Source: Cenococcum geophilum (taxonomy: Eukaryota). From it: a stretch of 64,000 bases of DNA. The position numbers and the translations under genes are program-made. The stretch spans positions 14,694,001 to 14,758,000 of the forward strand of contig CP158635.1 of NCBI GenBank assembly GCA_050273025.1. The letters are read 5' to 3'. The notes beneath the pieces are model-generated. The model made no database searches. It was not told where the DNA came from and saw nothing but the letters and a program-made list of their open reading frames with translations. Of this stretch, positions 3,580 to 39,884 are shown one piece after another (position 1 is the stretch's first letter; every line of letters begins with the position of its first letter).

Positions 3580-3623
3580 CAATCACTACCTAGTTATAGT
3601 ATTAATATAAGAAGTCGAATAAC

Positions 3624-6582: not shown

Positions 6583-6589
6583 AGGCCTA

Positions 6590-10572: not shown

Positions 10573-10680
10573 AATAAGCAATAATATTAACTAAATTAAT
10601 TAGACGGATATTATACCTCTAGTAAACAACTTAGAGATGTTTTAAATCTTTAAGGATAAAGATAAAGAGGAGGGAGATGG

Positions 10681-11105
10681 TGTTATAGATACTTTAAGTA
10701 CAATATTATAACTACTTAGAGAAGAGACGGAAGAAGCTAGTTGGTTAATTTAGGCATAGTCTAGGATGGAGCCGATAGAACTATGTAACAAGGAATAGTA
10801 ACTAAGGTTATATAATGTGCTACGTATTAAATAAGAGGAATAAAAGGAACTCACATACCTTATATATAAGACGTATATTACGTATAAGAAGGATTTTATA
10901 GGAGTACAGTTGTGTATTTAAGGACCCTTAGTCCCTACCTAGATAGTTCCTTCCTTATAGTGATTCTCAGAATACAATTAGAGTTAATCTATTAGGCAAC
11001 CACTCCACCAGTTATTATTACGTTATTGACTTTTGTACTTGCATTTCCTACATACTTAGCCCAATAACGAGCCTACCGTAGTTCTTGCTATAAGGTTCCG
11101 TTACA
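10681..11105 (+). repeat. 3' LTR
   Basis: tgttatagatac...ttccgttaca, preceded by polypurine tract aaagaggagggagatgg and followed by TSD ataag. Confidence 0.95.
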
Positions 11106-11110
11106 ATAAG

Positions 11111-15879: not shown

Positions 15880-18800
15880 GTAACGATCAGAGTTACAAAA
15901 ACTAGAGCTATTGCGGTAGTATGCGGCTTGCTAGCTTTATTGCATTAAGTTTAATTATGGTAAGGCGAGCTTTCCTAACGAGGGTGAATTTCAATTCTTG
16001 GTTTGGGGTGAAGCTAGTCGTGCACAAAGCTGTATAAGGGATGGAGAATGCAAGACGCTTGCATGGTGTTTTGCCGCTAAAGACCCAAGCTTTGTAAGAC
16101 GTACTAGTCTCATATTGATGTGTGACTCCATACTCTATCTGCCCTTCTGACCCATAAAACAACAAGTACCCAAGAGCCTGTGAGTCAATGGGAAAAAGGA
16201 GTAGCTAGTGTCCAGTACATATAGGGGACCTGCGCTCGGAGAATATTGTTCCTGTAGTTGGCCTATTTACTAGTTCTTTTGGAGTTGTACCTATTAATAA
16301 GTATGGCAGAATATCAACGAACGGCATATATCCGCAGCGTTAGGATTGATCATGAAACTTTCGAGGGCTAGCATTGGAGAATTCCGCCTAGATATCCAAC
16401 GTGTATACGCTATGCAATGAAGCGCAACTACCGGTTCATTCTCGGGGCCTCCAACGATATCGATCGGCGCACGCTACAATATCTACTTGATCCGCCGAAG
16501 CTCTGGGAGCCCGAGCCACCACAGATTGACCGTAGTCATGTAACTCTCTATTTTTCTAAAGGACTCCGCAATGTCTTGTTCTTCCTTGGTAACACAGCGA
16601 TATCTAGAGGAAGAGAAAATTAGCTGGAATATAGCTGGCGAGGACGTCGAATCGCTGGACGAGATTTTACTTGAGAAAGGCGGCAATCTTATCTCCGGAA
16701 TCTTGGCAGAGGACTCCTCTCGCGACCACTTCTCTAATATTTGTGATGGGCAGAAGTAGCCAGAAAGAGGAAAAAGTAGACATAAGTCTCATGCATTTGC
16801 GCGATCGGTAACAGGGACACTTGTTGACGGCGGGCAGCGGGCAGAGATTGAGGGGGAAACGTTGGGAGGATTGCAGAGTGGGAGGCGTCGCAAACGGTGG
16901 GATACATGCCCACAGGGTGGAGAGAACCACAGCAACGGAAACAAGCTGTGAACATGCTGTCTGTGCTTCCGGAGCGTTCAACGCTCGAGCACAAGGGTGT
17001 CGGAGTTGGTGGGGAAAGACCTATCAGCCAGGAGTACATGGCGATCGCACCGAGCCAATCCATGCTCTTCAAGTTGCCGTGCGCCGCAACAACCGGAGTA
17101 TCCTTAAACTATAACACGGGGAAAATATAGCTTAAAGGAGGCAAGCTCGACATGAAAGACAGGAGCTTCGGGAGGCAATCTGCATCTTCAGCAAGAATGT
17201 AGTGCCAGAAAGTTAAAGAAGTGTATATATCATATGCGTGTCGGATATCGGTAGATTGTCATGCGGATCAGATGAAAATCGGTTGTGATGCTTTCCCTTT
17301 CCATCACCAAGACCGACCTCCCGGGGTTTTGGGAGCGAAGACTGACGTCGTAGGACTACGGCCGAATCACAATACCGCAGCGCTGGTAGTATAAGTACGA
17401 GAGGACTCGATGCTGGCCGGCAAAATTCCCTCGGAGGAGCAGAGGAGTAATCTGATGACGGGCTTTCGTCTGGATGCGTGCTATGAGATACACATACGTA
17501 CCTACTTACTCGTATTGTATTGGGGGCGCTGAAGCTTGCTCGTTGAAGCTTGCTCGCTAGGCACCAGAGGGTGGAGCTCGTGGTGTCAGAGGGCTCTGCT
17601 GACAGGTGACGCATATTTAAGACAAGTGATCGCCTTCGGATGAATTATGTGAAGCCTGATTCGTCGAATGAACTTGAGCGATGGAGGCTTCACGCAGCGA
17701 ATGGCATGGATCATATGCTGCAATGTGTGCTAAAAATTGCGGATGTCGCCATGGCAAGCTGCCGTGGCTAGGCCGGAAAAAGCCACGGGCCAACACGAGG
17801 CGGAATTGTGCGCTTTTGCGGGCGGAGATATTGTATTGTGGGTGGGCCCTGTCTATTTGCAGCCACGGTAGGAGGCTGCCTGAGCGCCAAATAGGAGGCA
17901 TGCAAGGGACAAGCGACGGGATGCGGGCTGTCAGAACTTTGGGAAGACAGAAGACGACCCCCCTGCTGCGGAAGCCTTAATGCTTGAATGCTTGATTGAA
18001 ATACTTTTTTTTAACGCGGTTTGGTTGAGACACTCGTCTGTGGTACGCAGTGCTGCATGCGTAACGAGACGCAGCGAATCAGCGACCCGGCCAGAGTCCC
18101 CAAGCCAGATCTGGTGGCGTCTCGCTCCCTTTTGCTTCGGCGTTGCGCAACAACGCGTGGCCCTTGTCTGGTCTGGTCGTAGCTGGAACCGCTTTGGTTG
18201 ATGGCTGAGTGAGATTCTGAGAGAGCCTCTCTCGGGTCAGCGCTTCGAAAAGACTCAGCCGCAAAGAATGCTCCAAGCAATACTGTAAGTGAAGCTGGAG
18301 CCTGCGGACTTCGTGGAGAATATACCACCGTGGATCGTCGCATGTTCAATTCCAAAGCCGGGAGGCTAGCAGAGATCGACCCACCTGTAACGCTAGCTCC
18401 GCCGACTATGGGCTACTGATACGAGGCGAAAGCATTCCAGAAACGACAACGAACTTTTTGGAGGCCGACGTTTCCGTAACCCTTCTGCTGTGAAGAGGCC
18501 GCTTCATCCTCCTCCAAGCTGTTTTAACCCTCCGCGACTTCTCGACGTCTTCACGGCGCTCCAATTGCTCATTTCCACAGCCCACCGCGGTCGTTCAGCT
18601 ATCGCTTCCTTCAGCCTCTTTTGAAACCCTTGGCTGTCAGACCCTGACATTGCGGCTGTCGATAACACGCAGTCTGAGCGTCACCCGAGAGTTGACCCTT
18701 CCTGCAGCGCTAGACAGACAGCCCGCCTTTCTAATGTACCTAGCAAGGGCCTTCAGCAAGATTTGCCTACGCCGATAGTCATTTTGCTATCTTGCAAATT

Positions 18801-18931
18801 CGGATCCCCACCAAAACAATCACTACTTATCATCCTCCCCTTCATCCGCCTCCTAGAAAACTTCCGGCCACGCCCAGTCTCTTGCTCCCCAGTCTCCATC
18901 CCTCTCCGCAGCTAGCCCACACCTAGTCAAA

Positions 18932-20275
18932 ATGCTCACCTTTCGACGGGCCCTGGTCATCTCCGCCGCCGTTCTCACACTCCTTTTCATCTTTCGATCA
19001 TCACATTCATCACCTACCCAGCCTAAGGCCCTAACAGCAGACTCACTAGTCCACCCCGAACCTATCTCCAAAACCAATGCTGAGCAGCCCGCCAGACAAG
19101 AGACAACAGACCCGCCGAAAGCCAAACCTAAAGAAAATGGAGCATGGAAAGGAGCAGGGAGTGCTCAGATAAACTCCAAGAAACCCAAGACCCAAATATC
19201 CCTCGATGACGTCCGCAAACGACCGCTCCGCGACCAGCTCGAATATCAATTCCCCTACGATGTCGACACCAAGTTCCCTGCCTACATCTGGCAGACATGG
19301 AAGTATACACCTGCGTCCGGTGAGTTCGAGGAGGTTTTCCGCGAGGCGGAGGCCAGCTGGACGATTCTCCATCCTACATTCGTACACGAAGTGATCACGG
19401 ACACCGTCGCCGTGCACCTGATGCGTCATCTGTACGCTTCGGTGCCGGAGGTGCTGGAGGCGTACAATGCGCTGCCCCTACCCGTCCTGAAAGCCGACTT
19501 TTTTCGCTATCTCATCTTGCTGGCAAGAGGAGGAATATACTCGGATATCGACACTGCAGCTTTGAAGTCGGCAACGGACTGGGTGCCTACGGATGTGCCG
19601 CGGACTTCATATGGCCTTGTCATTGGCATTGAGGCTGATCCGGACCGTGAGGACTGGGCTCAATGGTATTCGAGGCGGATCCAGTTCTGCCAATGGACGA
19701 TCCAGGCGAAGCCGGGACACCCGGCCCTGCGAAATATTGTTGCCAACATCACGGAGGAGACACTTAAGCGAAAGGCTGAAGGACGGCTAACGAAAGATAC
19801 AAAAAATATTATTGAGTTCACTGGTCCTGCGCTGTGGACGGACATCATTTTCTCATTCTTCAACGACCCAGAATATTTCGACATGAGCACAAGCAAGGGT
19901 AACATTACATGGGAGCAATTCACCAACATTAAGGCCGCTAAGAAAGCTGGCGATGTTATCGTTCTGCCCATCACCAGCTTTAGCCCCGGCGTGCGGCAGA
20001 TGGGTGCTGGCGAGGATGATGACCCGATGGCTTTCGTGAAACACAATTTTGAAGGTACGTATCCCTGATGCCTCTGTACAACACCCTTCTGTCCCCGCTT
20101 TATGTACTCAACGGCTTGTTACACATGACTGCATCTAGCTGCGTCAACCCTTGGCGTACTCCAACGCCCCCTCGACCCCCGTCCCCAGCTAGTTCCGAGT
20201 AAGGATGCTAACCTCTCTACTTGCACAGGTACCTGGAAACCGGAAGCAGAGCGACACATTGGCGAGGTCATCTAA
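18932..20275 (+). CDS. OCH1: Initiation-specific alpha-1,6-mannosyltransferase (GT32); exons 18932-20054 and 20229-20275
   Basis: N-terminal signal anchor; motifs FPAYIWQTWK, KADFFRYLILLARGGIYSDID (DxD), GIEADPDREDW, RRIQFCQWTIQAKPGHP. GTACGT...GCTAAC...CAG intron restores the end HNFEGTWKPEAERHIGEVI*. Confidence 0.95.
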
Positions 20276-21446
20276 ATCGACTCTCAAGTAACACAATGAC
20301 CCTTAGCGGACCTGCCTTTTCGACCGACCCCTCACCACTAAACCCTCAGACCGATCGATTGGATAAGCGACGAGAAACACCCTTGTGTACATCTGTATTT
20401 CTCTCACCATCGCCTTCTTGCATTTTCGAGCGAGCGAGCGCGCACTGGCATTCACACTCAAGCGGGATAACAAAAACAACGGGAAAAAACACGGAAAAGC
20501 AATTCCTTCGCAAACTTTATAGAATGGAGCTTTCGGCCGGGGAGGATCACTCCACAGCCTTGTCCTGGGGATAGGTTGGGCATTTTCAACGCGGGCGAGG
20601 GGAGGGGAAAGAAAGTAGCGGAGGCAGTTTGGGTTAGGATATATGGCAAAACGGCGCGGTATTCCCGGGTTCAAGTGCTGAATCGGGGCCTTTTGTCTGT
20701 TGGTTCGGTTCTTTGGTTGGGCGGCGCTGGGGAGTTTTTCTGCACTTGTTTTATTGCTTGTTAGGATTAGTGGCATAGAGGGTACGATATGAGTATATAG
20801 TGCTTGCAGGAACGATCTATGATATGCTCATTGACTGAGCTCATTGGTTTTGAAATGCGCTTCTCTCGTTGCAGGTTTGCAATACTATCATAGAGTGAAG
20901 AGGGCTATATGCTGCCCGAGCTGATTTCGTGTCTCGCTGATCCGGCGTACCGTGCATGTACGGAGTATCCGCCAAACAGTGAACCCGCAGGAGTAAAGCA
21001 ACATAGCGCGAAAGACGACGCTATCCCCTCTACGCCTTGGAGATATGAAAAGAAGATACAAATCCGAAAATACAAATTCCAGGATCCTACAACGCCAGGG
21101 CCGCAGAGCCAGCTCCGTGTCGGCAAGGAGAGTTTCAAATAAAATATAAAATAAAATATACGAATAATGTCCGCGATAGGGGAATAAGCCCCAATCTTAC
21201 TCCGGATAATATCCACATAAGATCGGGTTTCGAAACTTCAGGGCTCTCTCTCTCTGTGTGTGTACGAAACTCGTAACTCGTAACTCGTAAATCTTAAATT
21301 CTAAGAATACCCAGCTTTCGCACCCTCATTCTCTCCCGTCCATTCATCTTACACTCTTACACTCTAACCCCCTACATTCCGCGTTCCCCACACCCCCCCT
21401 CTCTCTCGTGTCCCCTAACCTCCAAAAAAAAACATCGCCAAGCACC

Positions 21447-21851
21447 TCATCTCCTCTGCCCCGTCAGCGCATTCAAGAAGGTATCCCAAATCAGCACGAT
21501 GGTGTCGCCAACACTCGGCCTCCGCTCGTGCTCGTAGCGGCTGCTGCTGCTGCTGTTACGGTGACCGCTGCCGCCGCCGCCGCCGCCGCCGCCGCTCGAG
21601 TGGCGCGAGTAGTGCGAGTGGCGCGAGTAGTGCGAGTGGCGCGATCCCGGGCGGTTGTGGTCGGAGTGCGAGCGGTGCGAGCGGTGCGAGTCGTAGGAGC
21701 GGCGCGTCGGCGTCTGCGAGGCTGGCGCCGTGCTGAGAGGTTGCGCGTGCTGTTGCGGGGTGCTGGGGGCGTAGGGGGAGGATTGGGCGGATGGTGGTGG
21801 GGGGAAGTAGGATTGTTGTTGTTGTTGAGGTGGTGAGTAGTGGGATGTCAT
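21447..21851 (-). CDS. Small Pro/Gln/His/Ser-rich hypothetical protein (134 aa)
   Basis: ATG-initiated ORF with low-complexity body and an ordered C-terminus RRPSVGDTIVLIWDTFLNAL; pyrimidine-rich 5' leader. Confidence 0.65.
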   Translation of the reverse strand: MTSHYSPPQQQQQSYFPPPPSAQSSPYAPSTPQQHAQPLSTAPASQTPTRRSYDSHRSHRSHSDHNRPGSRHSHYSRHSHYSRHSSGGGGGGGGSGHRNSSSSSRYEHERRPSVGDTIVLIWDTFLNALTGQRR

Positions 21852-22641
21852 GGTTTGGGATGTTGTGCGACGGGGTGGTTGTGATGATGGTGAATGGACG
21901 ATTGATTAGATGGGTCTATGTGTGTGTGGATGTATGGACGCTTTCTGCTAAATTTCCGAGAAACTGTAGTAGTTATTGTAGAAGGCTGTGATATAAGGAC
22001 CTGGGCCTGATATCTTTCTAGCAGGCCGGGGTCGAGATATCACGGAAGTGATTTGCGCGGGATGGTGTTGGTACCGAATCTGGAGGATCAGCAGCACTGA
22101 AGCAGGTTAATTTCTCAGCAACGTGTACGAGCAATGTGTATGGGCAGCCTGGTACATCCCATGGCAATATATAAAAGGCAACGTTTGCCTTCAACCACTA
22201 TGAAGATTGGTTCCGTCAGCCTTGGTGGTCACGGTGGTCTTGTGCTTGTGAAGAATGACGTCGAAGGGTCGGCATCTCCCGTTTAGGCAGGAGACGAAGA
22301 GCCAAGAGTCGGTGTAGGCTGATAGGGCGGGTTGCCTGGTCGGTCAATCAGATAAACTCGCACGTACAGGCGTATTGCTCCTTATCCAACAAATTCTCCA
22401 ACAATCGTCTCTACAACCTATTATGCAATATACATATCTGCGCGCATAGGCCTTGCTAGCAGGAACACCTCGATCGAATTAAGCTACAATAGAGTTAAAT
22501 TATATGTAAAATCTAAGCTTTATTACCATAATACTAAGTTGCAATTAATTGATTAATCCACGGCTCCATTGTGCCAAGACTTGATTGAATCTAGAGCTTG
22601 GTAAAAGGAGCGCCTTTCTCAACGGCGCATGGGATAGGGTG

Positions 22642-22798
22642 GCTTGCTGCAGTACTGTAATCTATTACTTTGCGATATAGTACCAAGTCGCTAGCCCTTT
22701 CTAAAAGACTTTGCTTAATAATAACACCTATCAAGCCACAGCTATAGCCCACAAGGGTGTAGTCGGGTGCCCTCCCTGATAGCGTGATCGAGGTGTTC
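22642..22798. repeat. Left arm of inverted repeat flanking the NLR gene
   Basis: Reverse complement of 28358-28529; shared core ttctaaaagactttgcttaataataa and ccctccctg.tagcgtgatc.aggtgt. Confidence 0.9.
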
Positions 22799-23288
22799 GT
22801 CCGCTTCCCTTAAGACCGAAGTATGGCAAATCTTAAGCTTAAAGGTATTTCTATTACTAGCCACCTTGTCACTGATCTAGAGAACTCTAGAAGCCTCGCC
22901 GTAAGCGGTGTCAAATTACCCAACTATGTATTCTCGCTTACCCCTGGACCCCTCTATAAAATAGAGATATAATAAAAAATATTAAATTCTATGGCTTCCA
23001 CTATGCCAGAATCAGGCTAGACTAAGTACCTTTTCTCTTCCTTCGAGCGCCCACCGGTGCATTGTTTCGGTCTCTTCATACTCGCCCTGGCTCGCCAACA
23101 CCGAACCAAGGTCGTCAACGCTGGTGGGCGTAAAGGGGTATTCTTAACCCATTTATCACGAAGACTCTAGAACATTTGGCAAGCTTAAGGAAAAGATATA
23201 AATTCATGGGGACCCCTAAGGCCCTTAAGATATAATAGATTTATAAGGTATTAAAACGAATACCTACATATGAATGCTCCCAAGAATC

Positions 23289-26200
23289 TTAAGAGTCGTC
23301 GACCTTAAAGTTGCATAACCATACCTTTCCGGATCCAACGCCGATGCCGATCGTCTTCCCCGACATGGCCGAACATGACGGCCGATACTCTGAGGGTAGC
23401 CACACTAAATTCTCTGAATTATATGTTATCCACGCTCCGTCTGAACTTAAAGCCCCGCCTTGGTATTGAGGATTTTGAGGATCTGTTACACTAGGTATTA
23501 TATTTAAAGCTGATGATGCATTGATAGCAATAATACCAATTTCAGTGTAAAGATATAAGCCGGTGGTATCAACTGATATGTTATAAAGTGCTTTGCCAAC
23601 ACTGAGTGTCTGTAGGCACTCGCCACTGCTTGTATCCCAGATCTTGACCGTCTTGTCGCCCGACCCCGACGCGAGCCATGTCGAATCGTGTGAGAAGGCG
23701 ACCGACATGACCCAATCGCTATGGCCCTTGAGCGTCTGCAGGCACTCGCCACTGCTTGTATCCCAGATCTTGACCGTCTTGTCGTGCGACGCCGACGCGA
23801 GCCGTGTCGAATCGTGTGAGAAGGCGACCGACCTGACCCAATCTCCGTGGCCCTCGAGCGTCTGCAGGCACTCGCCACCGCTTGCATCCCAGATCTTGAC
23901 CGTCTTGTCGTCCGACGCCGACGCGAGCCGTGTCGAATCGTGTGAGAAGGCGACCGAGTTGACACAACTTCTATGGCCCTTGAGCGTCTGCAGACACTTA
24001 CCACTGCTTGCATCCCAGATCTTGACCGTGTTGTCGCCCGCCGACGTGAGCCATGTCGAATCGTGTGAGAAGGCGACCGAGTTGACCCAATGTCTATGGC
24101 CCTTGAGCGTCTGCAGGCACTCGCCACTGCTTGCATCCCAAATCTTAACCGTGTTGTCGTTTGACCCCGACGCGAGCCGTGTCGAATCGTGTGAGAAGGC
24201 GACCGAGCTGACCCAATTGCTATGGCCCTCGAGCGTCTGCAGGCACTCGCCACTGCTTGCATCCCAGATCTTGACTGTCTTGTCGCCCGATGCCGACGCG
24301 AGCCGTGTCGAATCGTGTGAGAAGGCGACCGAGCTGACCCAATTGCTATGGCCCTCGAGCGTCCGCAGGCACTCGCCACTGCTCGCGTCCCAGATCTTGA
24401 CCGTGTTGTCGCTCGACGCCGACGCGAGCCGTGTCGAATTGTGTGAGAAGGCGACCAAATCGCTATGGCCCTCGAGCGTCTGCAGACACTCGCCACTGCT
24501 TGCATTCCAGATCTTAACCGTCTTGTCGCTCGACGCCGACGCGAGCCGTGTCGAATCGTGTGAGAAGACGACCGACCTGACCGTATCGCTATGGCCCTCG
24601 AGCGTCTGCAGGCACTCGCCACTGCTTGCATCCCAAATCTTGACCGTGTCGTCGCCCGACGCCGACGCGAGCCGTGTCGAATCGTGTGAGAAGGCGACCG
24701 AGTTGACCCAATCTCTACGGCCCTCGAGCGTCTGCAGGCACTCGCCACTGCTTGCATCCCAAATCTTGACCGTGTTGTCGCTCGACGCCGACGCGAGCCG
24801 TGTCGAATCGTGTGAGAAGGCGACCGAGTTGACCCCATTGCTATGGCCCTTGAGCGTCTGCAGGCACTCGCCGCTGCTTGCATCCCAGATCTTGACCGTG
24901 TTGTCGCCCGACGCCGACGCGAGCCGTGTCGAATCGTGTGAGAAGGCGACCGACCTGACCCAACCGCTATAGCCCTTGAGCGTCTGCAGGCACTCGCCAC
25001 TGCTTGCATCCCAGATCTTGACCGTGTTGTCGCGCGACGCCGACGCGAGCCGTGTCGAATCGTGTGAGAAGGCGACCGAATTGACTCCACTTCTATGGCC
25101 CTCGAGCGTCTGCAGGCACGCACTCCATTTATCTCCCATAGCCGGCTTTATCGTGATCCATTTCGGCTCTTCCTCCTTAAAAAGACCCCTTATTAGGCTG
25201 CGGGTAGGACTAAACATGAGTGCAGACGCATATGCCTGAAGAGGACTGTTCTCTATTGCCCGCTTATGATACATAATAAGTCGGCGCGCATCTTGAACTA
25301 GCTCAATTAATGGGAATGTATCTACTCTTCCCTAAAGTCATAAGCATGAACCATATATAGATAGCATCGCTGGTCTAATAATTACCTGGATTAAAGCCTC
25401 CAGTTTCGCCATTGAAAGCACCCCCTCCAACATGCTTCTGCAAAGGCTAAGAGCCTCAAGCCAGTAAAGGTATTTTTTTCTTATAAATATATCGACTATG
25501 CCTCCATCCTGCAGGTCGACCTTATAACCCGCACAAGAGTTGGAATTCCAGTCATAGAGGTGATCAACCCAATAGATACACGAGTAGCGTGACACCGCTA
25601 ATGGGTCTGGATCTGGTTGTTTAACCTGCTCAATAGGATATCCTAACGCACGTAAGTTGTAGATGTCTCGTCGTAGCGCCCTGGATATAACCTGGAGCGA
25701 TCTCGAGAAGATTACGTAGTGAGCCTCTCCCCTTCCAGACGGGAAGATTTCATCGAATGCCTTTATGAGCAAGTAGTCCTTCGCGGACTGATGTACAAAA
25801 TAGATGGTACCTTCTCGAATAGTAAGGAACGAACCACAAAGGCTAATGATCTCCCCTAACGACTCTAGATCATCCGACATATCCTCAAGTATCTCAACAA
25901 GAGATGTCAGTTCTTTCAGCGTGATGGGTTGGTATACAATCGCGATCAAGGCAAGTATCCGCTTGCAGATATCAGCATTACCCGAGTTGCATATTTGCTC
26001 CACCATTCGCTCGTAAAGAGAATTAAGTCCAGGTGGAAACGCGTTCAGCTTTGCGCGGGTCTCCCATCGTTGGATCTTCTCAAGGTTTTGACAGACCAAG
26101 GCCACCCAGAGGAAAGTGTTATTTGCATTTGAGGACAGATGGTTTAGCACGGCGTCTCGCGTTTTGTCATCGTATTTCTTTCGCTGCGCTAGCTGAAGTA

Positions 26201-28102
26201 CTTTATGCTGGATGTATATGCTGACAGCCGTAGAAACAGACTCTGCGTTTAGCTCGAGGCACAGCCTCACCTTATGTCCGGCTCTTTCTAGCCGTTCCTC
26301 GATGTCGGGCCAGTTGCGGCTAGAGACGATCCACTTGACACGAGATACAGACGACTTCTGGGCGATGAAGTCTAACAGTTTCGGCAAGTCTGCTACGCAT
26401 TCGTCGAGCGCATCGATGATCAAGTAGGTGCTGTTCAAGCTCGGGTCTTGCAGAATGCTTGTGAAGATCTCGGACAAGGCAACCCAGGCATTCGCATCCT
26501 CGAAGAGAGTTTTGCCTGCGTGATCGTACTTCTTCCGTATATGCGAGATGAGCGATGGCTGCTGATCGACAAGCAAGTACACCAGACCTCGCAGCACAGC
26601 CGTGGCGTTGTTAATTCGAGTGTCAGTGGCCTGGCAGAAGAAGTAGGACAGAAGATCCGTGTTGGCCATCGACTTCTTCAGCTCGTTGACAATACCACAG
26701 AGCAGCATGGTCTTACCCTTGCCGGGATCGCCCTTGATCCATAGCAGTCGGCTCTGCCGGTCGTTGCGCCATTGTTGGAAGTCGGAGTTTTGGAGGATCC
26801 AGTAGTACGAGTCCCCCAGCAAGCCACCCTTGGTTTCCTCAATACGCTTCTTGTCATCACGGGGATCGGTTAGGCGTAAGTGTTGAATGCATTCCTTGTC
26901 TTCTTTCTCCATTTGAAACGAAACCTGTTTCTGCAGGAGGCAGTAGATATCCTGAAGCAGCCTCGATTCCTGGTTCTTCGCAACGTCGAGAAGCTGTTCC
27001 AGGCGGAGGCTGATTTGCTGGGCAGTGTATGCATATGAATCTTGCCGGACAGCATTCTCCGCAACCTCGACGTTCTGCAGGCTCCCATTCCAGTCGTCCA
27101 GCTTAATCGTATCGCGAAGGAAGACGATGAACCGGTTTCGGTAGCAGGAGCTGACGCTCTTTATCAGATACAAGAGCAGCGCCTGATAGAGGTCGATGAC
27201 TCGCTGCTTAAGTTCGCCTCGGACCCCGGCGGACGTCTCAACGTCAACAGTATTCTCCTTGAGCAGGAGGATCGAGAGTTCGCAGTACCACTTCATTCTG
27301 GAGATGACGTGGACGATGCCATCACGATTTGCCTTCGTCTCGGTGGTCGGGTTTACGAATACCTTGCACGTTAGCATAGCCTTTGCAACCGAGTAGACAG
27401 ACCTACTTGCATGGCAAAGCAGACACCCGCCCAGGCCAGAGCAGCTTGTGGTATCGTCCCGAGAGCAGAGCCGATTAGGTCCTTTAGCGAGAGAAGGCCT
27501 TGCAGGGCGGCGCCGACGGTTTGCTTCTTTTCGCTCTCCCATTCGGTCTTTTTCAGACCAGCTTGTACAAGCCATTCCATCTGCGACCATCTCTTGTCTT
27601 TGTCTGTTTGATCAATCGAATTTTCGTCCATTTGCGATCCTTCTGGGCTCGAATCATCCTTCTCGAATTCCCGTGATAAGATCCTCTCGTATGCATCGAC
27701 CAGCTTGGGCTCCTTCTGTTTAAGTCCGTCGTATGCTTCATTCCAAAGGCGTTCCGAGATGTTCGGTGCGGGAGACGTCGTGGAGAAGGTAGGTTGAGTA
27801 GTAGACGTCGGGACTTGTGAGGTGGCGGGAGGGGGGAGAACTGGCGACCGCGGGGGTACAGGTTGGTGGACAGAAGACGCTGGTCCGGCAGCGTCTTGGG
27901 GAGAATTAAGATTGACATTCGTTGGCGGTGTAGGAATGTAGGAGATGTCAGCCGAACAAGTCTCCGTGACGGTTGTCGATTGTGATGTCGACGAGGTAGG
28001 CCTCGAGTTAACGTCGTGTTTGCTCTTAGACTTCTTGGAGTCCTTCGCTTTACGGTCTCTGTGGTGAATTCCCAGTCGGGAGAAGAACGATTTTGGAGGC
28101 AT
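23289..28102 (-). CDS. NLR-type STAND protein NACHT_N (NWD)-NACHT-WD40, HET-E/NWD-like, ~1571 aa; exons 28102-27407, 27362-25386, 25331-23289
   Basis: NWD N-terminus ERLWNEAYDGLKQKEPKLVDAYERILS; Walker A WIKGDPGKGKT; Walker B LIIDALDEC; KYLYWLEALSL; 12 WD40 repeats. Two short GT-AG introns (44 and 54 bp) join the three ORFs in frame with no stop. Confidence 0.95.
23616..25115 (-). repeat. 12 near-identical 126-bp WD40-encoding repeats
   Basis: 1500 bp = 12 x 126 minus one 9-bp and one 3-bp in-frame deletion; consensus LQTLEGHxxxVxSVAFSHDSTRLASASxDxTVKIWDASSGEC. Confidence 0.97.
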
Positions 28103-28357
28103 GGCTTCCACGAGCACAATCGAAAATGTAACGGCACTGACAAGAGCAGCGACTAAACATGCTCGAGGTCGGTCGGCGGGTGTAGTCGATGGTTATCGAG
28201 GCTGGAGGCCTGCGGCCGGTCGGCGCTGGCCAATTGAAATCTACGACTGCGTGGCGCCGCCATCCGGTGCGCATCTAAAGGTAAAGCAAGCACTATTGAT
28301 ATAGGTAAGCAATGCTACAATTACAAGATGAGCCTGTTCGTGAACCGAGCAGTTTTG

Positions 28358-28529
28358 ACACCTTGATCACGCTAGCAGGGAGGGCGGCCGACCCGCCTTG
28401 TGATGACGACAGAAGGTGTGCTGTAGCTGTAGCTTGACAGGTATTATTATTAAGCAAAGTCTTTTAGAAAAGGCCAATAACTTAGTATAATACCATAAAG
28501 TAATAGATTATTATAATACTACAACAGGC
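28358..28529. repeat. Right arm of inverted repeat flanking the NLR gene
   Basis: Reverse complement aligns to 22642-22798 with mainly transition mismatches and two small indels. Confidence 0.9.
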
Positions 28530-29211
28530 AGAGACTAGCAGGTACCTAGCTTTTAGACTGTTGTATGCGCTTAACTAAGTTCGGTAAGGCTATTAGTAAG
28601 AGCTAGGGCCGACTTTTTAAAAGGACGTGTTTAGGCGGAAGCTAACTTCGCTAGCCAATATATTAGGACGACTCTCAACGCCCTGGTCTTGGCTGCCAAT
28701 GGGCTGGAGGGCTAGAGGGCTTGCATCGTGAAAGTGTTGTGGTGTGCTGCGGGCGTGCTCCAGTCACCAAGAGAGAGAAAGCCACACGCGAACCCGATCT
28801 TCACGCAAGGCTGCACGAGTGGGCAATATTTAAATCCACCGCTGCTTAGCCTTTCTGCCTTTCCTACACTGAGGCGGGCCAAGAGAGGGCCCCTATTCGC
28901 TCAGGGACGATCTCCAAACTTCATGCAAAAGTCACCAGCCAACCCAATGGTGCACCGCCTCGTCCGCGTCTTCGCGCTTTTCCTTAGTGGGGCGATGATG
29001 GCAGCGGCATAGCCCCGCGCGTTTGCCTCCCGCTCTCACTAATCGACATCCCACCCTCTCTATTTTTCTCTGAAGGAAGAGAAGTACCACCACTTCAACT
29101 TGTTGCCTTCTTCCTCCAACAGCCCCGCCGTTCGTTGATCGCCTTTGGATAGCCTGAAGCTCATTCCAACCTCACTGCTCCCCAACTCTCGTTTCCCTGT
29201 ATTTTCTCAAC

Positions 29212-30914
29212 ATGTCGTATTACCCGCCCCCAGGACAGCAGGGCGGTTACCCCCCATACCAAGGCCGTAAGAACAACCTTGTCTACTTCGAGTTCAATGC
29301 CCAGTCTCATTCCCCTTGGCAGCTGAACTGACAATTGCGATACAAAAGAATCCTCTCAGCCCGGTTACGGCCAGTACCCCCCACCATCAAACTCTCCATA
29401 CCCGCCACAGCAGCCATACAGCCAACCTCCACCAATGCAAAACCAGGGATACCCGCCTCCAGGAGGCTACCCACCTCAGCAGGGTGGCTACGGAGCTCCT
29501 CCACCGCAGGGCGGTTATGGTGCTCCACCTCCGCAGCAGGGCTACAGTCAGCCCCCATATGGCCAACAGCCGCCCTCACAAGGATATCCCCCACAGCAGC
29601 CTTATGACGCCCCTCCGCCAGGCCAGTATGGCGTTCCTCCACCTCAGCAGGGCTATCGAGCTCCTCCTCCTGTAGGTCTTTCCAATCAGTCGCACTTGAA
29701 TGGTTCTCTTGGGACGATTGCGCATCCTCAACTGTTCATTTACAAACACAGGGGGGCTCCCAAAAACTAGCCGACTTGGCATAAGCCAGGACACAGCTAA
29801 CTGAACTTTGATAAAGGGTCAATATGGTGCTCCACCACCTCAGGCATACGGTGCTCCCTTGCCTCAACCATACGGTGCTCCCTCACCTCAACCATACGGT
29901 GCTCCCTCACCTCAACCATATGGCGCTCCCTATGGCGCTCCCACCCAGCCGACGCCTCCCTCTCTAGGCTACATTCCAAATCAAACTGCCCAGTTTGACG
30001 TGTCTCACGATGTCGAGGGTCTCCACAAAGCCATGAAAGGCTTCGGCACCAACGAAAAAGAGCTCATCCGGATACTATCCAAGCCAGACCCCGTGATAAT
30101 GGCAACCATCCGCACGCAATACAGCCAGCGTTTCATGAAAAACCTCGTCAACGACCTCGTCAGCGAAACCAGCGGCTACTTCAAGGACGGCCTCGTCGCG
30201 CTCGTGCGCGGCCCGCTAACCCAAGACGCATACCAGCTCTACAACGCGATGAAGGGCATGGGCACCAAGGAAGTGGTGCTCAACGACGTGCTGCTCTGCC
30301 GCAGCAACGCCGACATCAACGCCATCAAGGCCGAATACCAGCACCTCTTCAAGCGCAGCCTGGAGAGCGACCTGCGCGGGGACCTGTCGGCGGCGACGGA
30401 GCAGATGTTCGTGATGGTGGCGTCGGCGCGGCGCAACGAGGACAGCGCGCCCGTGATTCCGCAGCAGATCGACGCCGACGTCGCGGAGCTGCAGCGCGCC
30501 GTCGGCGGCGCGATGAGCAAGGACTCCGTGCACGCGTGCCAGATCCTGACGTCGCGCTCCGATGCCCAGCTGCGCGCCATCGCGCAGACGTACCACCAGA
30601 AGTTTTCAAAGTCCCTCGAGAGCGTCGTCAAGGGCCGCTTCTCCGGCCACATGGAGGACGCCCTGCTGCTCATCCTCGCCCGCGCGACCAACCGCGCTCA
30701 GAGCGATGCGGAGCAGCTCGAGGCTGCTATGGCCGGGATGGGCACCAAGGATGAGTTGCTGGTTAATCGCGTCGTTAGGGTGCATTGGAATCGCCAGTAT
30801 TGCCAGCAGGTTAAGGCGGCGTATAAGTCCAAGTATCGGCGCGATTTGGCGACGAGGATTAAGGGCGAGACCAGAGGCGATTATGAGAGGCTGATGGTTG
30901 CTTGTATTGAGTGA
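29212..30914 (+). CDS. Annexin with long Pro/Gly/Tyr/Gln-rich N-terminus; exons 29212-29266, 29349-29671, 29817-30914
   Basis: Annexin repeat motifs AMKGFGTNEKELIRIL, AMKGMGTKEVVLNDVL, AMAGMGTKDELL and ETRGDYERLM; two GT-AG introns with branch sites keep the frame. Confidence 0.93.
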
Positions 30915-32069
30915 AGTCAATCGATCAATTAACTGATCAATTGATCATTCAGCTTCATCAGAGCATCTTTGAGGGATAGACGGACTCGTGTTCTTTGTTT
31001 AGAAAATGGTGAGGCTGGGTTTTGTGTGGTTTCCTCCTTTTGCAGATGTTATGATTGTTTTTTTATTTTTGCTATTATTACTGAGGCGGTTGGGTGAACG
31101 ATGCTGCGGCGGCGGCGGACTTTGAGAGGTGGCCAATACGTTTGATGTCTGTGATGAGTCTTCTTGAGTTACCTTCGTGTGACGGTCTGATACTTAGAGA
31201 TTACCCAATCAAGTTTTGCTCGCGCATATGTCATTCTTTTGGTTTGCGGCCTGTGGTTTATTAACAGGTTTGGACGAGCGGATGGGATGTGGCTGAAAGA
31301 TTGATGCGCCGAATACGTCTTGGATGGCGTTGGGTCACGGTAAGTAGGTTTTGCCAGGACGTATTCCATGTGCTGCAGGGAAAGGCGTCCACACGAGGAT
31401 CCATCTGTTGAGTTCTCACCATGCCATGCGAGTTGTATGAACACCTGAAGCCCTTCATAACTTATAATATAGTAGATCTTTATATTTCTTCAAAGTATCT
31501 GAAGCTATTCACGAGGGCATAACTTGGCTACTATCAATCAAGCGGACGCCTTAGAAAAGTATGTGACTGGGGTATTTTCCGGTTGGGCATTCAGAAAAGG
31601 ACATATTAAACAACGCTTGAGTATCGTACGATTCTAGTGGTGCCGGCGCGCTACTCGCTGTAGGGTATGGTGATTCAATACGCCTGTAGTGGACCGAATA
31701 ATGCCACTATGAATGAACTGCATGACAAAAACAAGGAAAAAGAAGGCAGCGGAAAAGAAAGGCTGCTATAGGTCCATAATTGCTGCAAATTCGCCCTACT
31801 TTATAACTTTCTGCGAGATTCTGATAAGACTTTGACTCAATAAGGTTCGTGGGATGTGTGCTAACTGGTTCTCCTATTTGGCAGGGATACATAGAGTGGC
31901 GGAGCAACCTCGCGATGATGCTACTCGGAGACTTGCATACCAAATCCAAATTTCCTAGCCTTGCTGGCCAGCTATAGCGGGTCTTTAATATATTACTATA
32001 CTTCCATCAGTTCTGAGGGATTCCAACCGGGTTTTCGTATTTTTACTCCGCTTGGATCCCGAACGAAGT

Positions 32070-33787
32070 CATGTTCCGGCCAATAATATTCGGCAGCTCG
32101 GCAGATAACATATCACGACTTGGGAAAATGGACCAAATGTTCGAGGGACGTATGAAATTATTTCTAGCTGCATAATCACAGCCACCATTGTCTCTCGCAG
32201 GCCATACATTCCAATCTTCCGTTTCAAGAAACCGTGGATCCGCATTTTGACTTTCCCTCTCAGGAAGCACGAGCCCAGCAGGTCTTTCGGAAAGTTGCAT
32301 GGTTTATAATGGGTCTTCTAGCTCCAGAGTTAGAAGCATTTACGGCATAGTATCAGCACAGAGAAACCGCTTTTGTTTACAAAGAACATTGCGGTAGAAG
32401 GGGTACGAATGCTTCTCTTTCCAAGCCTTACTTGATCTCATAAATGACATGCCGCTGTGATAATCTGCTCCGCGGCTAGCTTTTTTTCAAATGGTAGTGG
32501 ACGATCACACACTCATTCCTTGTCCTAATGAGGGGACTTGCAGTCAATGTTTCCAGTCCACCTTTTATTCCTCGTCTAATTACGTCAACCCTCGGGTTTC
32601 CTAGATTGCTTGAGGATGGAGGCTATAAATATGAGGCCACGAGGATGCTCAGTGCAGAGAATGTCAAGGGGATGACATTGGTAAACAGAGCATCCTGGAA
32701 GGAATCACTCTCCCAAACACAGGACAAAAGCAAGGCCGACGCGGTAGCAAAGGTGGTTGTTTGCGGGCAAGTTATTTGGTTCATAGCCCAATGCATTTCC
32801 CGCTTCATTAATAGATTGCCTATTAATCTTCGAGGTTAGTTGGTACCGTTGTATCCTGCGACGCCCCGCCAATAGGCTGATTGGGCTGATCTTTTAGTGG
32901 AACACTCTTTCGCACTGTATATGCGCCTTCATCATCTACACGCTTTGGTGGCACAAGTCTTTTGACGTCAAGGAGCCATACATGCTAAGAAACGAAGCAG
33001 CTCGGGGCTACGTTGCTTGGCTGCGGATACTATCTCACGAAGCCAGCGTCCTTTCTCAGATGAAGAATGTTGATGGTTCACCTCCGGCTAATGGAAGAGG
33101 CCCAGCGGTTTAGCTGAGATAAAAAAACTCGATGGTGATTGTAACGCCACGACCGAGCTTCGCGGGGGTGAAATACTGCATCCTGCGCGGTTCTGCTTCC
33201 TCCCAGGAAACCACACCACGGTATTAGAGCTTACACCTGCGGATAGGAGGGGGCGGGCACTGGCAGCGCCATACATACGGAGCATCAAAGACTGTCGCCC
33301 CCCCGCCCCCCGGGGAACTGGCGCGTGGAGCAGATCCCGAACTCCCCGGGCATCTCCAGCGCGGTCCACCAACACACCGTGATCGTGTGGGCCATCTTTC
33401 TGCTCGCTGGACTCTTCTACGGCGGGCTGCACGCGCTTGCTTGGAACGTGCCGTTGCCCTCGCGGACCCAGCAACTACTTTGGAGGCTGTCTTCGGGTGT
33501 GCTGGTTTTCGGGTTTGGGTTGCTGTGCCTCTTCGCGAGGCTCCTGCATCCGGTGATGTCGGTGGGTGCAAAGGCACTTTTCAGCCGTAAAGGGGACGCT
33601 GTGTGACAATCGGAGACGGAGAATACAGAGACTCAGGGATTTGGCCCTGTATAGCTCGCTGAGCCCGATGGTGTCGCTAGTCGTCGTTGTGGGCTACGTG
33701 GCTGTCGTGGCTTGCGTGCTCGTTCCTGTTGGTGGCGTACTTTATCTTGCTTTTCCATGCTCCTGCTGGTGCATTCCGCTAGGCTAG
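32070..33787 (+). pseudogene. Decayed fungal multi-pass membrane protein gene (DKSKAD-motif family)
   Basis: Fragments in shifting frames: WFIMGLLAPELEAFTA*YQH; WTITHSFLVLMRGLAV; QDKSKADAVAKVVVCGQVIWFIAQCISR; IYTLWWHKSFDVKEP; FYGGLHALAWNVPLPSRTQQLLWRLS. Contains stops and frameshifts. Confidence 0.7.
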
Positions 33788-33849: not shown

Positions 33850-34852
33850 CAGTGTATCGCACGACTAGCTTCACCCCCCCTTGGCGAGCGCTGCGAGATT
33901 TCAAATTCGCTTGATTGCCACCAACTGTACATAGTAATTGTAGCGAACGGCTGTGGCTACACGCAAGGTCCGTTTTGGTTGCCCTGGAGAATCGCCTTGG
34001 TCGGGAGAATTAAATTGAAGACGTACGCTTCCTCTTCTCCCCACTACGCCTCCGTCCGTTGTGGCCGCCAAAACGCGAATACAACGCTGTCTCTGCAGAA
34101 AGGTCGATGAAATTTGGCAATATCGTACGGGCGAAAACCTCACGATATTTAACAAAGATCACGACACTGCAGAGGAAGGCCGATCGCGAAGGTTCTTGCA
34201 GCCAAGCATACGGATTCGCTACAATTACTATGTACAGTTGGTGGCAATCAAGCGAGATTGGATGCGCATACAAGGGGGTAACATCAATGCCTCAGACGCC
34301 CCCCCTGCTAGTATGGAGAGGAAAATAAGCAAACCCCAAGTAATATAGCAGGGCTAGGTTATTTTGTGTACTATACTAGCAGGGGGGGCGTCTGAGCAAT
34401 TCATGTCACCCCCTTGTAGAAATCTCGAAAAATATTTTTTCGCTTCGGTACGCGGGCTCGCTAGCAATCGTAGCGAACGCCCATGCTTGGCTGCAAGAAC
34501 TTTACTTCTGGCAGACTTCGCGATCGGCCTTCCTCCGCAGTGTCGTGATCTTTGTCAAATATCGTAAGGTTTCCACCCGTATGATATCACCAAATTTCAT
34601 TGGCAATTACAGGAACAGCTTTGTATTCGCGTTTTGGCGGCCACAGCGGGGGGGCGCAGTTAAGGGGCGCGTACGTCCTCAATTTGGTTCTCCTGGCCAA
34701 CCAAGGCGATTCTCCAGGGTAACCAAAAAGGTCCTTGCGTGCGGGCACATGCGTTCGCTACAATTACTCTGTACAGTTGGTGGCGATTTAGCGAGCCCGC
34801 GTACCATAGCGAAAATATTTTTTTGCCAGAGGGGGGTGGAAGCTGGTCACTG
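33850..34852. mobile_element. ~1-kb foldback (palindromic) non-autonomous element with TA flanks
   Basis: TA|CAGTG...CACTG|TA ends. The left arm (~33863-34315) is an imperfect reverse complement of the right arm (~34371-34848), with a ~55-bp spacer. Confidence 0.75.
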
Positions 34853-34871
34853 TACCACAACTTCCATCACT

Positions 34872-37370
34872 ATGAATACAAGGAAGCCAATCCCGTTTGA
34901 AGCTGCCTTTGATCCTTCGTCGGGCGACTATATCTCTATCTACTCGCCACCGGTTGGATTTTGTAGTTGCGTCGATTGCGAGAACCAATTTCGCAGCACA
35001 GATTCTCAAGGCATTGACCGTCTAAGTTATGCAGAGGCATTGAGTACTGCTGAAGCCAGCGAAATATCCATTTCATATGCAAAGGACATCAGGAAGGACC
35101 TTCAATATCTCCGAGATCAAGTCGCTTGTCATGGAAACACAATCATCAGTCGTTGGAAAAAGAGAAGCCGCGAGAAGCGAGCTGCTGCCTTGCTCAAAGC
35201 CTTTCCTAAGATCTTCCCACAGCAATGGTCTGGGCCTATCATTAATTACGACTACGCGAATGTGACTTGGCGAAAGGCACGAGAATTTCGCGAAGCACTA
35301 CTTCTGCCGTATTTGAATCTCGAAGTACTAAGGGACGATGCACTCAAGTTCCTGGGCCTGCTTTATAATCGAACGAAATTTGATCCAGAGGATTGGGTTT
35401 CTTTTGATTCACACCAGACTAGGACTAGTTGGGCGACAGGAGGATTTCGAACGGATTTCGCTGAGTGCTGTATTGTCTTCTATGGGCTAAACTATGGCGA
35501 GGTGGTTCCTTGGAACAGTGACCAGGCTCATCGATGGGACATTATTGGCTTTCCGCGAGGACGGCTAGTTCTTGAGGCTCAGCATTTTATAATGCAATTC
35601 TTACGAAAGATTGTGGAAGACCTACTGGACGGTGTCGATCGTGTTGGCTTGTCGGATAAATGGATTGAGCTTGGAAATTCTGGCTTTCGCAGATCCTTCG
35701 GAGCAGAGACCTGGTCGGCATTTAGCAATCAAGCATATTCGGCGCCGGTTTTCGATGTTGATCGCCTTGTCAGTATTTCACAAGCCCGGCTCGCAGAATC
35801 GGAGGATCACCTGTGGCTCCTTCAGACCGATCCAGCATACTTCCAGATGTTTATAAAAAATGAAACTCAGGGACGTATCTTCAAGGAAAATGATCCCGAA
35901 ATATGGAACCGGAACGTTGCACTGAATGCCTGGGTAGAACCCGTGGGAAAAATGCAGACTTGGCGCTGGGTCGTACAAGAAGTCGAACGCATGAGAGCGC
36001 AATATCTCAAGTTCCGTGACAGTATCCACGTCGGAGAACGCTTGCCATCAAAATTCGAATTCGCTATCGCAAGCCTCGAGCTTTTACTAATCAACCTTTT
36101 GCTCCATCGTACAAAATCCTTAGGCATGCTCTTGCCTCGGATGATTGCGTTTCAAGACCTATACAAGCACGATTATTCTCAACGGGATCAGGTCAGAATA
36201 ACGATAGATTTAAAGAAAACTAGGAGCACAAGGGAGATGTTTTACAAGGACCCGCTCCATTGGTGTTTAGAGCAGATGTCGACAGACCCTGAAAATCCAA
36301 AGATGTTTGACGCGGCGATGCTGTTCGGGTTTCTAGACGACTGGCTAGGAAAAGACACTACATCTGTCAAAGACAAATGCCGTCTCGATCAAAGGCTGCT
36401 TAGTGATTTGTCTGATCTAGCAGCAAACCATGAGCTACTAGCTGTAGTCAGACAGCATCGGCCAGTCTGCAAGCCGACGTCGATAGAGGAGGCACGGGCA
36501 AAAGGTGCTGATCGCCAGGCTTGGCGAGGTATGCAAACCGGTGATGAGAAGTACAAGCAATCAAAGCAAGATTGGGAAGCACTAGCGGCACAGCTTAAGG
36601 CAGTTCTAGATCTTCCATTTCCAAAAGGGAAGCACGACCGTGCCTGGCTGGAAAGTGCGGATCAAGTGCGACAGAATTTGAAGAATTTCTGGACCAAGGC
36701 ACGAGAGATGCACCGGAAAGCATTAGAACATTCGAAGCTATACACTGAGGAAGATAAACAGCAAGAGCTTGCTACTATGTCGTTTGATAGCACTATTGAG
36801 CACCTTGCCGTGTTAAAAGCTGAGCGAGACGCCATCCTCGCACCGAAAGCGCGTACAAAGCCGGATGAGCTAGTGTCCGATGATGCGGGGACTGGTTGGA
36901 ACATAGGGCCGGCAATGAAACTTCCATCTACTTCACTGTTATCTGCACCGAAAAGTAAGACCAAAACCCGACCTGAGGTTTCGACTTCAAATGCGGATGT
37001 GGCAGAAGCGCCCAAGACCCCAGTCATTGAAAAAACGAAAATCCCACCACTGGCAATCATTCAAGTCAAGCCCGAAAGCATGCGAGTTCTTACGAGAATG
37101 TTTCCCTGCACCCCAGAAGAATATTCAGGGAAGCCAGTTGACTGGAGAAGCTTTGTTGGGGCAATGGAAGATGCCGGATTTCCCGCCGCACAGTCAGGTG
37201 GATCGGCCGTTACTTTCACGAAAGAAGGAGAGGGCAGGATAGTCTTTCATAAGCCACATCCAGTTGCGAAAATTGAGCAGACTGTCTTACAGTCTTGGGG
37301 GAAGCGAATGGGAAAGTGGTTTAAATGGGAACGAGAGACTTTCGTCTGTGGTAGCGCAGGCGTTTCATAA
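34872..37370 (+). CDS. Intronless 832-aa fungal protein with C-terminal HicA-like domain
   Basis: Long uninterrupted ORF; first ATG outside the palindrome is at 34872 (MNTRKPIPF). C-terminus VDWRSFVGAMEDAGF...GGSAVTF...RIVFHKPHP...WGKRMGKWFKW. Confidence 0.85.
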   Translation: MNTRKPIPFEAAFDPSSGDYISIYSPPVGFCSCVDCENQFRSTDSQGIDRLSYAEALSTAEASEISISYAKDIRKDLQYLRDQVACHGNTIISRWKKRSREKRAAALLKAFPKIFPQQWSGPIINYDYANVTWRKAREFREALLLPYLNLEVLRDDALKFLGLLYNRTKFDPEDWVSFDSHQTRTSWATGGFRTDFAECCIVFYGLNYGEVVPWNSDQAHRWDIIGFPRGRLVLEAQHFIMQFLRKIVEDLLDGVDRVGLSDKWIELGNSGFRRSFGAETWSAFSNQAYSAPVFDVDRLVSISQARLAESEDHLWLLQTDPAYFQMFIKNETQGRIFKENDPEIWNRNVALNAWVEPVGKMQTWRWVVQEVERMRAQYLKFRDSIHVGERLPSKFEFAIASLELLLINLLLHRTKSLGMLLPRMIAFQDLYKHDYSQRDQVRITIDLKKTRSTREMFYKDPLHWCLEQMSTDPENPKMFDAAMLFGFLDDWLGKDTTSVKDKCRLDQRLLSDLSDLAANHELLAVVRQHRPVCKPTSIEEARAKGADRQAWRGMQTGDEKYKQSKQDWEALAAQLKAVLDLPFPKGKHDRAWLESADQVRQNLKNFWTKAREMHRKALEHSKLYTEEDKQQELATMSFDSTIEHLAVLKAERDAILAPKARTKPDELVSDDAGTGWNIGPAMKLPSTSLLSAPKSKTKTRPEVSTSNADVAEAPKTPVIEKTKIPPLAIIQVKPESMRVLTRMFPCTPEEYSGKPVDWRSFVGAMEDAGFPAAQSGGSAVTFTKEGEGRIVFHKPHPVAKIEQTVLQSWGKRMGKWFKWERETFVCGSAGVS

Positions 37371-39508: not shown

Positions 39509-39750
39509 TACACGAAGCTCTGCACGAAGCTCTACACGAGGCTCTGCACGAAGCTCTGCACGAAGCTCTACGTACAGAGGCTCTGCACGAGGCTCTGCGC
39601 GAAGCTCTGCATACGGAGGCTCTACACGAAGCTCTACACGAAGCTCTACACGAAGCTCTACACGAAGCTCTACACGAAGCTCTACGTACAGAGGCTCTGC
39701 ACGAGGCTCTGCGCGAAGCTCTGCGTACGGAGGCTCTACACGAAGCTCTG
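39509..39750. repeat. Minisatellite, 12-bp unit (acacgaagctct and variants)
   Basis: Directly visible tandem array. Confidence 0.95.
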
Positions 39751-39884
39751 CATCGGGTCCCCGCTATATTCCCGATAGCCTCTACACGTGTCTCTGCCTA
39801 TGTAGCCGCCTTATTTTTTACCCTTCCTTCCTTCCTTACATCCACCCTACCTAGGGAGGCACTAGAACGGCAGCCAGCAGAGGA

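Follow-up and report, generated by a model that had tools for sequence, protein, structure and literature searches.

A 64,000-nt stretch of the Cenococcum geophilum genome (GenBank assembly GCA_050273025.1, contig CP158635.1, forward-strand positions 14,694,001 to 14,758,000; hereafter the window) carries a NOD-like receptor (NLR) gene that lies between two inverted ends. We observed that the inner part of this inverted repeat belongs to a family whose members have a sharp terminus, a fixed polarity and a marked contrast between the genes inside and outside them, and that one member unit has perfect ends. On balance, we lean towards reading these arrangements as a family of nonautonomous cassettes with terminal inverted ends, each carrying one gene of the NLR/HET class. 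The features of the window unit are given below in window coordinates; L numbers denote metagenome loci that carry related ends, and S1 and S2 are sequence modules that adjoin the ends.

22642 to 22748, minus strand: left S2, the outer part of the left arm, an inverted copy of 28420 to 28529; it lies outside the family terminus.
22751 to 22798, minus strand: left terminus, on the 3' side of the gene, with its outer end ACAAGGG at 22751 and an internal deletion of about 10 nt relative to the consensus.
22799 to 22987, minus strand: S1, the subterminal module on the 3' side of the gene, common to L014, L011, L017, L005 and L022.
23018 to 23152, minus strand: relic TPR repeat (tblastn) of about 45 aa, located after the stop codon of the WD40 gene and before S1.
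23289 to 28102, minus strand: NLR gene, NACHT_N-NACHT-WD40, 1571 aa (Pfam and exon joining).
28267 to 28357, plus strand: subterminal module on the 5' side of the gene, common to L008 (92% over 130 nt including the terminus).
28358 to 28401, plus strand: right terminus, on the 5' side of the gene, ending in CCTTGT at 28401, with a 12-nt internal deletion relative to the consensus.
28402 to 28529, plus strand: right S2, the outer part of the right arm, flanking the terminus on the outside; homology to L027 reaches about 28576.

A preliminary description of this stretch had reported that the gene is bracketed by two arms of about 160 bp (22642-22798 and 28358-28529) that are reverse complements of each other, and our analysis bears this out. 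An inverted-repeat search paired 22658-22752 with 28416-28510 (95 nt, 83%) and 22762-22796 with 28358-28392 (35 nt, 89%), the two pairs being collinear. The only BLAST match of each arm in the whole window was the other arm (155 columns, 74%, E = 8e-26); the window has no third copy. A transition-tolerant local alignment of the sequence outside the family termini stopped at 22642 and 28529 with a score of 163, compared with a mean of 40 and a maximum of 63 in 100 shuffles of these flanks. Beyond 22642 and 28529, or across the repeat at 22463-22641, no significant inverted similarity was found. The alignment of the two arms contains 24 transitions, 8 transversions and 19 gap columns; at 17 of the 24 transitions the A or T is on the right arm, in keeping with the earlier statement that the changes are largely C>T and G>A. 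The TpA richness of the flanks is likewise real: TpA/ApT is 1.7 and 1.5 in the arms and 3.2 in 28529-28700, versus 0.56 to 0.77 in the gene.

What has to be revised is the extent of the terminal repeats. The arms are composite, and only their inner 50 bp or so (22751-22798 and 28358-28401) are termini of a multicopy family; the outer 107 bp or so lie outside the family boundary. The arms as a whole are therefore not terminal repeats of a 5.9-kb unit, and the unit between the family termini (22751-28401) measures 5651 bp. The start of the unit had been placed at 22463 on the strength of 13 nt that match, in inverted orientation, the inner end of the left terminus (BLAST E = 0.74), a match compatible with chance. 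This match opens a separate, short, high-copy repeat (22463-22641) that abuts the left arm on the outside and has no inverted counterpart beyond the right arm. Among contigs of four public sequencing runs (X1, X5, X7 and X13) that we aligned to window positions 17000 to 33000 at a likeness of at least 85%, up to 13 from X13, and 4 to 5 from the other runs, match this repeat at 22506-22566. Contigs break at 22465-22484, and depth in X1 rises to about 880 versus 58.

Between the arms, three exons (28102-27407, 27362-25386 and 25331-23289) join in frame across two GT..AG introns of 44 nt (with a CTAAC branch site) and 54 nt to encode a predicted protein of 1571 aa. Pfam recognizes NACHT_N (5.8e-32 and 8.5e-34), NACHT (3.2e-17), NPHP3_N (1.4e-36), a winged-helix domain and WD40 (1.4e-162), the last in 12 stretches that correspond to 12 repeats; the repeat units are 126 bp long and up to 92% alike. 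A NACHT_N domain, a NACHT NTPase and a C-terminal WD40 array in one protein are what define an NWD-type fungal NLR. The gene is predicted to be intact, as first described, and a Pfam scan of the open reading frames (ORFs) found no transposase domain inside the unit, again in agreement with that description.

The ends are multicopy in the window's own species. In X1, summed contig depth was 387 and 467 in the bins containing the arms versus 40 to 58 in single-copy bins, and in X13 it was 125 and 119 versus about 11; these sums are not copy numbers, the arm bins also contain the 22463-22641 repeat, and many distinct contigs match there. Ten X13 contigs begin matching at 28358 and six end at 28396, X5 and X7 contigs do so at the same places, and five X5 contigs end at 22972, near the inner edge of S1.

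A 21-nt pattern drawn from the conserved core of the arms matched 31 times in 30 metagenome loci. All copies were oriented on this pattern, and its 21 columns are conserved by ascertainment; beyond them, some 28 more bases are conserved in 30 aligned ends. The frequency of the most common base is 0.91 at +20 to +29 and 0.76 to 0.77 at +30 to +49, and it falls to 0.38 at +50 to +59, after the sequence ..CCACACCCTTGT. This drop places a sharp outer terminus at ..CCACACCCTTGT, to within 1-2 nt in the 30 ends, while on the inner side conservation fades slowly. The right end of the window and the end in L008 are alike over the inner 98 nt and the terminus, and they diverge from the terminus outward. 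At L013, an inverted partial self-copy directly follows the terminus; this foldback may represent a head-to-head junction of two ends.

The ends are also polar with respect to the gene. S1 (about 190 bp) occurs only at ends on the 3' side, between the 3' end of the gene and the terminus, and ends without S1 are those on the 5' side. More distant relatives of S1 are found in L023, L026 and L015. Together, S1 and the terminus form a module of about 250 bp that includes just one family terminus and lacks an inverted partner.

Which genes do the ends enclose? We ran Pfam on ORFs of at least 130 aa on the inner side of the ends and on 51 outer-side ORFs. The inner sides gave the following.

L006, L013 and L024: HET-NACHT-WD40.
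L010: NACHT_N-NACHT-WD40.
L002: HET with DUF7779 and TPR_10/12.
L018: HET with TPR and DUF7104 repeats.
L014: a long ANK array.
L020: HET.
L019: RelA_SpoT.
L012 and L029: DUF7104 repeats.

Among the 51 outer ORFs, L020 supplied the only NLR and L013 a weak SesA match; the remaining families were copper amine oxidase (L018), DOT1 (L015) and one Mutator-like element (MULE) transposase domain (L008). No ORF inside any unit, in the window or on the inner side of a locus, had a transposase domain. We then ran a tblastn panel of proteins from these scans, together with the NLR of the window, placed each hit on one side of the terminus and counted sides of at least 900 nt. NLR/HET-type coding sequence was present inside 19 of 23 loci versus outside 2 of 21 (L012 and L020; Fisher p = 9.7e-7). 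The inner sides that lacked it were those of L011, L021, L026 and L028, the last of which has a large kinase-domain gene. The recurrence of the arms as inverted ends around other NLR/HET genes, a check suggested in the preliminary description, is thus found in the metagenome loci.

Three units are complete. Besides the window, they are L018 and the pair L030 and L022. In L018, two 46-nt arms that are 100% complementary lie 2484 nt apart around the HET-TPR-DUF7104 gene, making a unit of 2.57 kb; the copper amine oxidase gene is 1.3 kb outside it. L030 and L022 lie on one contig, where they bracket as inverted ends a HET-NACHT-WD40 gene that is split at about residue 440 by some 14 kb of transposable-element-like DNA, the ends of which resemble the AT-rich blocks of the window. 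Within 4-kb flanks, a partner terminus was found only in L018, the window and L001, and in none of the other loci. We rejected L001 as an inverted pair: this 4258-nt locus matches its own reverse complement at 97.8%, and its two 3'-type ends point towards each other, with a palindromic spacer of 3.66 kb in between. Both halves of that spacer show 90% identity to the left flank of L018, and the ORFs of L001 have no Pfam match. Either this large palindrome is real or it arose during assembly.

A family of nonautonomous cassettes best accounts for the constant geometry, the sharp terminus, the perfect ends of L018 and the bias of gene content to one side. In this family, a unit consists of an end on the 5' side of the gene, one NLR or HET gene, and then S1 of about 190 bp with the other end. 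The ends, about 50 to 70 bp long, face outward and stop at the boundary ..CCACACCCTTGT. We infer that units move; an enzyme working on their ends would transfer or exchange them in trans. The two termini of the window have different internal deletions relative to the family (about 10 versus 12 nt), the arms carry transitions like those of repeat-induced point mutation (RIP), and a relic TPR repeat shows replacement of the cargo; we read the window copy as old and probably immobile.

Several observations weigh against the cassette reading. No target-site duplication (TSD) was found at the junctions of the three complete units, as the preliminary description had also noted for the window, although with so few and such old copies this is weak evidence. 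TA, the TSD of TIR elements (those with terminal inverted repeats) of the Tc1/mariner-pogo type, flanks both sides of two of the three complete units, L018 and L030/L022; there it lengthens the palindrome, and we do not take it as a proven TSD. At most single ends and at both window ends, TG comes next. The four strains that we compared yielded no empty site; their contigs cover gene sequence at this locus, and all four appear to carry the unit. X13 looked at first like a strain with flanks only (strain share 0.19), and we rejected it as an empty site: one contig spans the 5' part of the gene, the right arm and the annexin gene, so that X13 is a diverged strain with gene and right arm. In another X13 contig, the match to the left flank ends at 22245 and is followed by 1166 unlike bases; the left-arm region of this strain (22245-22942) may be rearranged or hold an insertion.

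An autonomous element with these ends, encoding a transposase, was likewise not found among the 30 loci or in the window. The only transposase domain is the MULE domain of L008 (810-1622, plus strand, 5.6e-17), 0.5 kb outside the terminus; the inner 98 nt of this end resemble the right end of the window more closely than any other. We rejected the MULE as the autonomous partner on account of its position beyond the terminus and the lack of relatives in the window and the other loci. Moreover, the two ends of one unit are no more alike than ends of different units: ranked among 32 ends, the partners come 22nd and 2nd in L018, 1st and 17th in L022/L030, and 24th and 23rd for the right and left ends of the window. 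Recurrent outer flanks mean that the true outermost terminus may vary between subfamilies. The loci are metagenome contigs and include near-duplicates; L006 and L013, 93% identical, may be one locus. The proteins in the tblastn panel were mostly drawn from inner sides.

Might the ends instead be conserved boundary or recombination sites, or selected regulatory elements, at which cargo is swapped by ectopic or site-specific recombination without a transposase? The lack of a TSD, an empty site and a transposase would be expected of such sites, and so would the recurrence of one outer junction with different inner sequences. The 1.5-kb outer flank of the left (5'-type) end of L018 is 90% identical to the flank of the 3'-type ends of L001, whereas the S1 modules of the two loci are only 78% identical. 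None of the four outer-flank classes S2, S3, S6 and S7 is restricted to 5'-type or to 3'-type ends; each is found with both, at the same junction. These recurrent flanks may reflect insertion into a repeated, perhaps palindromic, target, or the flipping or exchange of cassettes, or longer modular termini.

The TPR relic in the window likewise points to replacement of cargo inside fixed ends. This relic (23152-23018) is 64% identical to the TPR array of L002 (E = 6e-11 against the whole window, tblastn), and a homologous stretch of L027 matches window positions 22980-23210 at 84%. In L022 and L005, unlike the window, the 3' end of the WD40 gene adjoins S1 directly. Judged from these alignments, the 3' end of the window unit once served a TPR-type NLR, and the cargo of the window was replaced. 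Towards the other end of the gene, homology to most paralogues, in both DNA and protein, sets in abruptly at 26915-26939, near residue 222 in the NACHT frame. No locus gave a tblastn match to the N-terminal exon, and HET takes the place of NACHT_N in the paralogues. This pattern suggests swapping of N-terminal domains at a fixed point near 26915-26939.

Other observations speak against recombination or boundary sites. The perfect 46-nt ends of L018, with unrelated flanks on one side, resemble transposon termini, and so does a boundary defined to 1-2 nt across 30 ends. Nor did Pfam detect a recombinase gene among the ORFs near the units. We judge this alternative, the main rival of the cassette reading, somewhat unlikely. 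In a bolder form of the cassette reading, the ends would constitute a system by which whole NLR/HET genes are mobilized, flipped and exchanged at fixed chromosomal junctions, with varying cargo beside one flank and relics left where cargo was replaced, thereby dispersing and reshuffling the NLR repertoire. We put this forward as a speculation that is unlikely to hold.

A further possibility is that small elements resembling miniature inverted-repeat transposable elements (MITEs), or solo ends, inserted independently beside NLR/HET genes, so that the bracket in the window would be the product of two insertions. The module of S1 and terminus is indeed discrete; its inner edge is fairly sharp and lies at about 22970-22987, where the X5 contigs end (22972). 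Four loci (L011, L021, L026 and L028) have no NLR/HET gene in an inner flank of at least 900 nt, and L008 has its MULE transposase on the outer side. However, that module has one family terminus and no inverted partner, and the orientation of the ends is never random: S1 ends lie at the 3' side of genes and bare ends at the 5' side. NLR/HET sequence, moreover, keeps to one side of the ends (19 of 23 loci, versus 2 of 21 on the other), and the left end of L018 consists of just 46 nt of terminus, yet it matches its partner perfectly. Independent insertion is hence quite improbable.

Two thirds of each arm consist of S2, a sequence that does not belong to the family terminus and that only 5 of 33 ends have in common (the two ends of the window and those of L027, L011 and L009), so that this part of the window's inverted repeat may be local or target-derived. 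That the whole bracket arose by inverted duplication on the spot, or that two repeats came to lie in this way by chance in a region rich in transposable elements, in either case with no relation to the NLR, is very unlikely: RIP-like changes would be expected of any duplicated DNA, but the inner 50 bp or so recur in the same geometry around other NLR/HET genes, and the explanation survives for S2 only.

Elsewhere in the window, the gene neighbours of the unit are a Gly_transf_sug (OCH1-like) gene and the annexin gene (Pfam). We found no tRNA in the region, and Rfam gave only one sub-threshold, snoRNA-like match. An open frame of 996 aa (929 aa from the first ATG) at 34380-37370 on the plus strand matches no Pfam family beyond a weak C-terminal likeness to HicA_toxin (8e-05, below the cut-off). 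The blocks 3000-13000 and 41000-64000 are AT-rich (GC 0.29 to 0.36, TpA/ApT 1.5 to 1.7), contain no ORF of at least 170 aa and look like RIP-degraded repeats. Within the first block, 3148-4361 and 9458-11110 are 74 to 79% identical to the DNA that splits the L030/L022 gene and to L029. Finally, some 245 bp at 39508-39752 match, at 73 to 84% and in many overlapping registers, tandem arrays that lie on the outer side in L024 (about 740-1350 and 2735-3415) and L029 (2663-2985); this is a satellite-like repeat shared with the window.

How do the proposed cassettes compare with known mobile elements? Plant Pack-type transposons (Pack-MULE and Pack-CACTA) have terminal inverted repeats (TIRs) around host coding sequence, contain no transposase and vary in cargo. 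The window, L018 and L030/L022 share the enclosure of host-derived coding sequence by TIRs and the absence of an inner transposase, and cargo differs among members. They differ from Pack-type elements in that each carries one whole, apparently functional gene, always of the NLR/HET class, in that neither a TSD typical of a superfamily (or of any fixed length, in the three complete units) nor an autonomous partner was found, and in that their ends are about 50 to 70 bp long, unlike the long TIRs of MULEs. The preliminary description had proposed a Pack-type or composite element that disperses NLR genes and had suggested looking for an empty site, a TSD and an autonomous element. The Pack-type proposal stands insofar as the arms contain family ends that recur around NLR/HET genes; the three signs of movement were not found, and dispersal itself stays conditional. 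A composite element, in which two copies of an autonomous insertion element would flank the cargo, does not fit because the arms, of about 160 bp, have no coding capacity.

MITEs are non-coding elements below about 800 bp that have TIRs at both ends, a TSD and a high copy number. The units are not MITEs either, as the bracketed units are coding and 2.6 to 5.7 kb long and the S1 module has one terminus. Helitrons lack TIRs and have a 5' TC, a 3' CTRR and a subterminal hairpin; the ends described here are inverted repeats terminating in ..CCCTTGT. In Fusarium, the MITEs called mimps lie upstream of effector genes, as complete small MITEs in promoters. Like mimps, the ends are short TIR-bearing repeats tied to one functional class of genes. 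Unlike them, they are inverted on both sides of the gene and have a fixed polarity. NLR genes occur among the cargo of Starships. According to the accessible part of the source, Starships are giant cargo transposons of Pezizomycotina, tens to hundreds of kb long, with a captain tyrosine recombinase (PMC9156397). The cassettes would resemble them as cargo-carrying mobile elements of Pezizomycotina and differ in their size of 2.6 to 5.7 kb, their single gene and the absence of a recombinase, including DUF3435, from the scanned ORFs of the window and locus ORFs of at least 130 aa. ToxhAT, as outlined in the accessible text on it, is a 14-kb TIR transposon that carries ToxA in wheat pathogens (PMC6737239, PMC12506042). 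It too is a TIR-bounded fungal element with a cargo gene foreign to transposons; it is a single effector-gene element that moves between species, whereas the cassettes would be many small units with different NLR/HET genes.

The cargo gene of the window, a NACHT_N-NACHT-WD40 gene with 126-bp WD40 units that are closely alike, is of the NWD/HNWD and HET-E/HET-D type. Fungal NLRs of this type have highly conserved repeats, according to the portions of the reports available (PMC13449251, PMC1805685, PMC4986451). In its accessible text, PMC13449251 names no element or terminal repeats for such NLRs, and the inverted ends are a concrete candidate for their vehicle. In the literature that we searched, supplements aside, we found no description of conserved inverted ends or TIR-bounded units around NLR/HET genes, and a search with the end motif matched only unrelated primers.

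Fungal NLR/HET genes turn over, move and expand very fast, and a family of inverted ends would be a concrete vehicle for these changes. The units would be a rare case among eukaryotes in which the cargo of small TIR elements is an entire functional gene, always from a single class. With the ends defined, the question becomes testable by a search for paired ends in assemblies. If cassettes are indeed exchanged, somewhat in the manner of integron cassettes or shufflons, then this exchange would be a mechanism behind the reported translocation and turnover of the highly repetitive NLRs of fungi.

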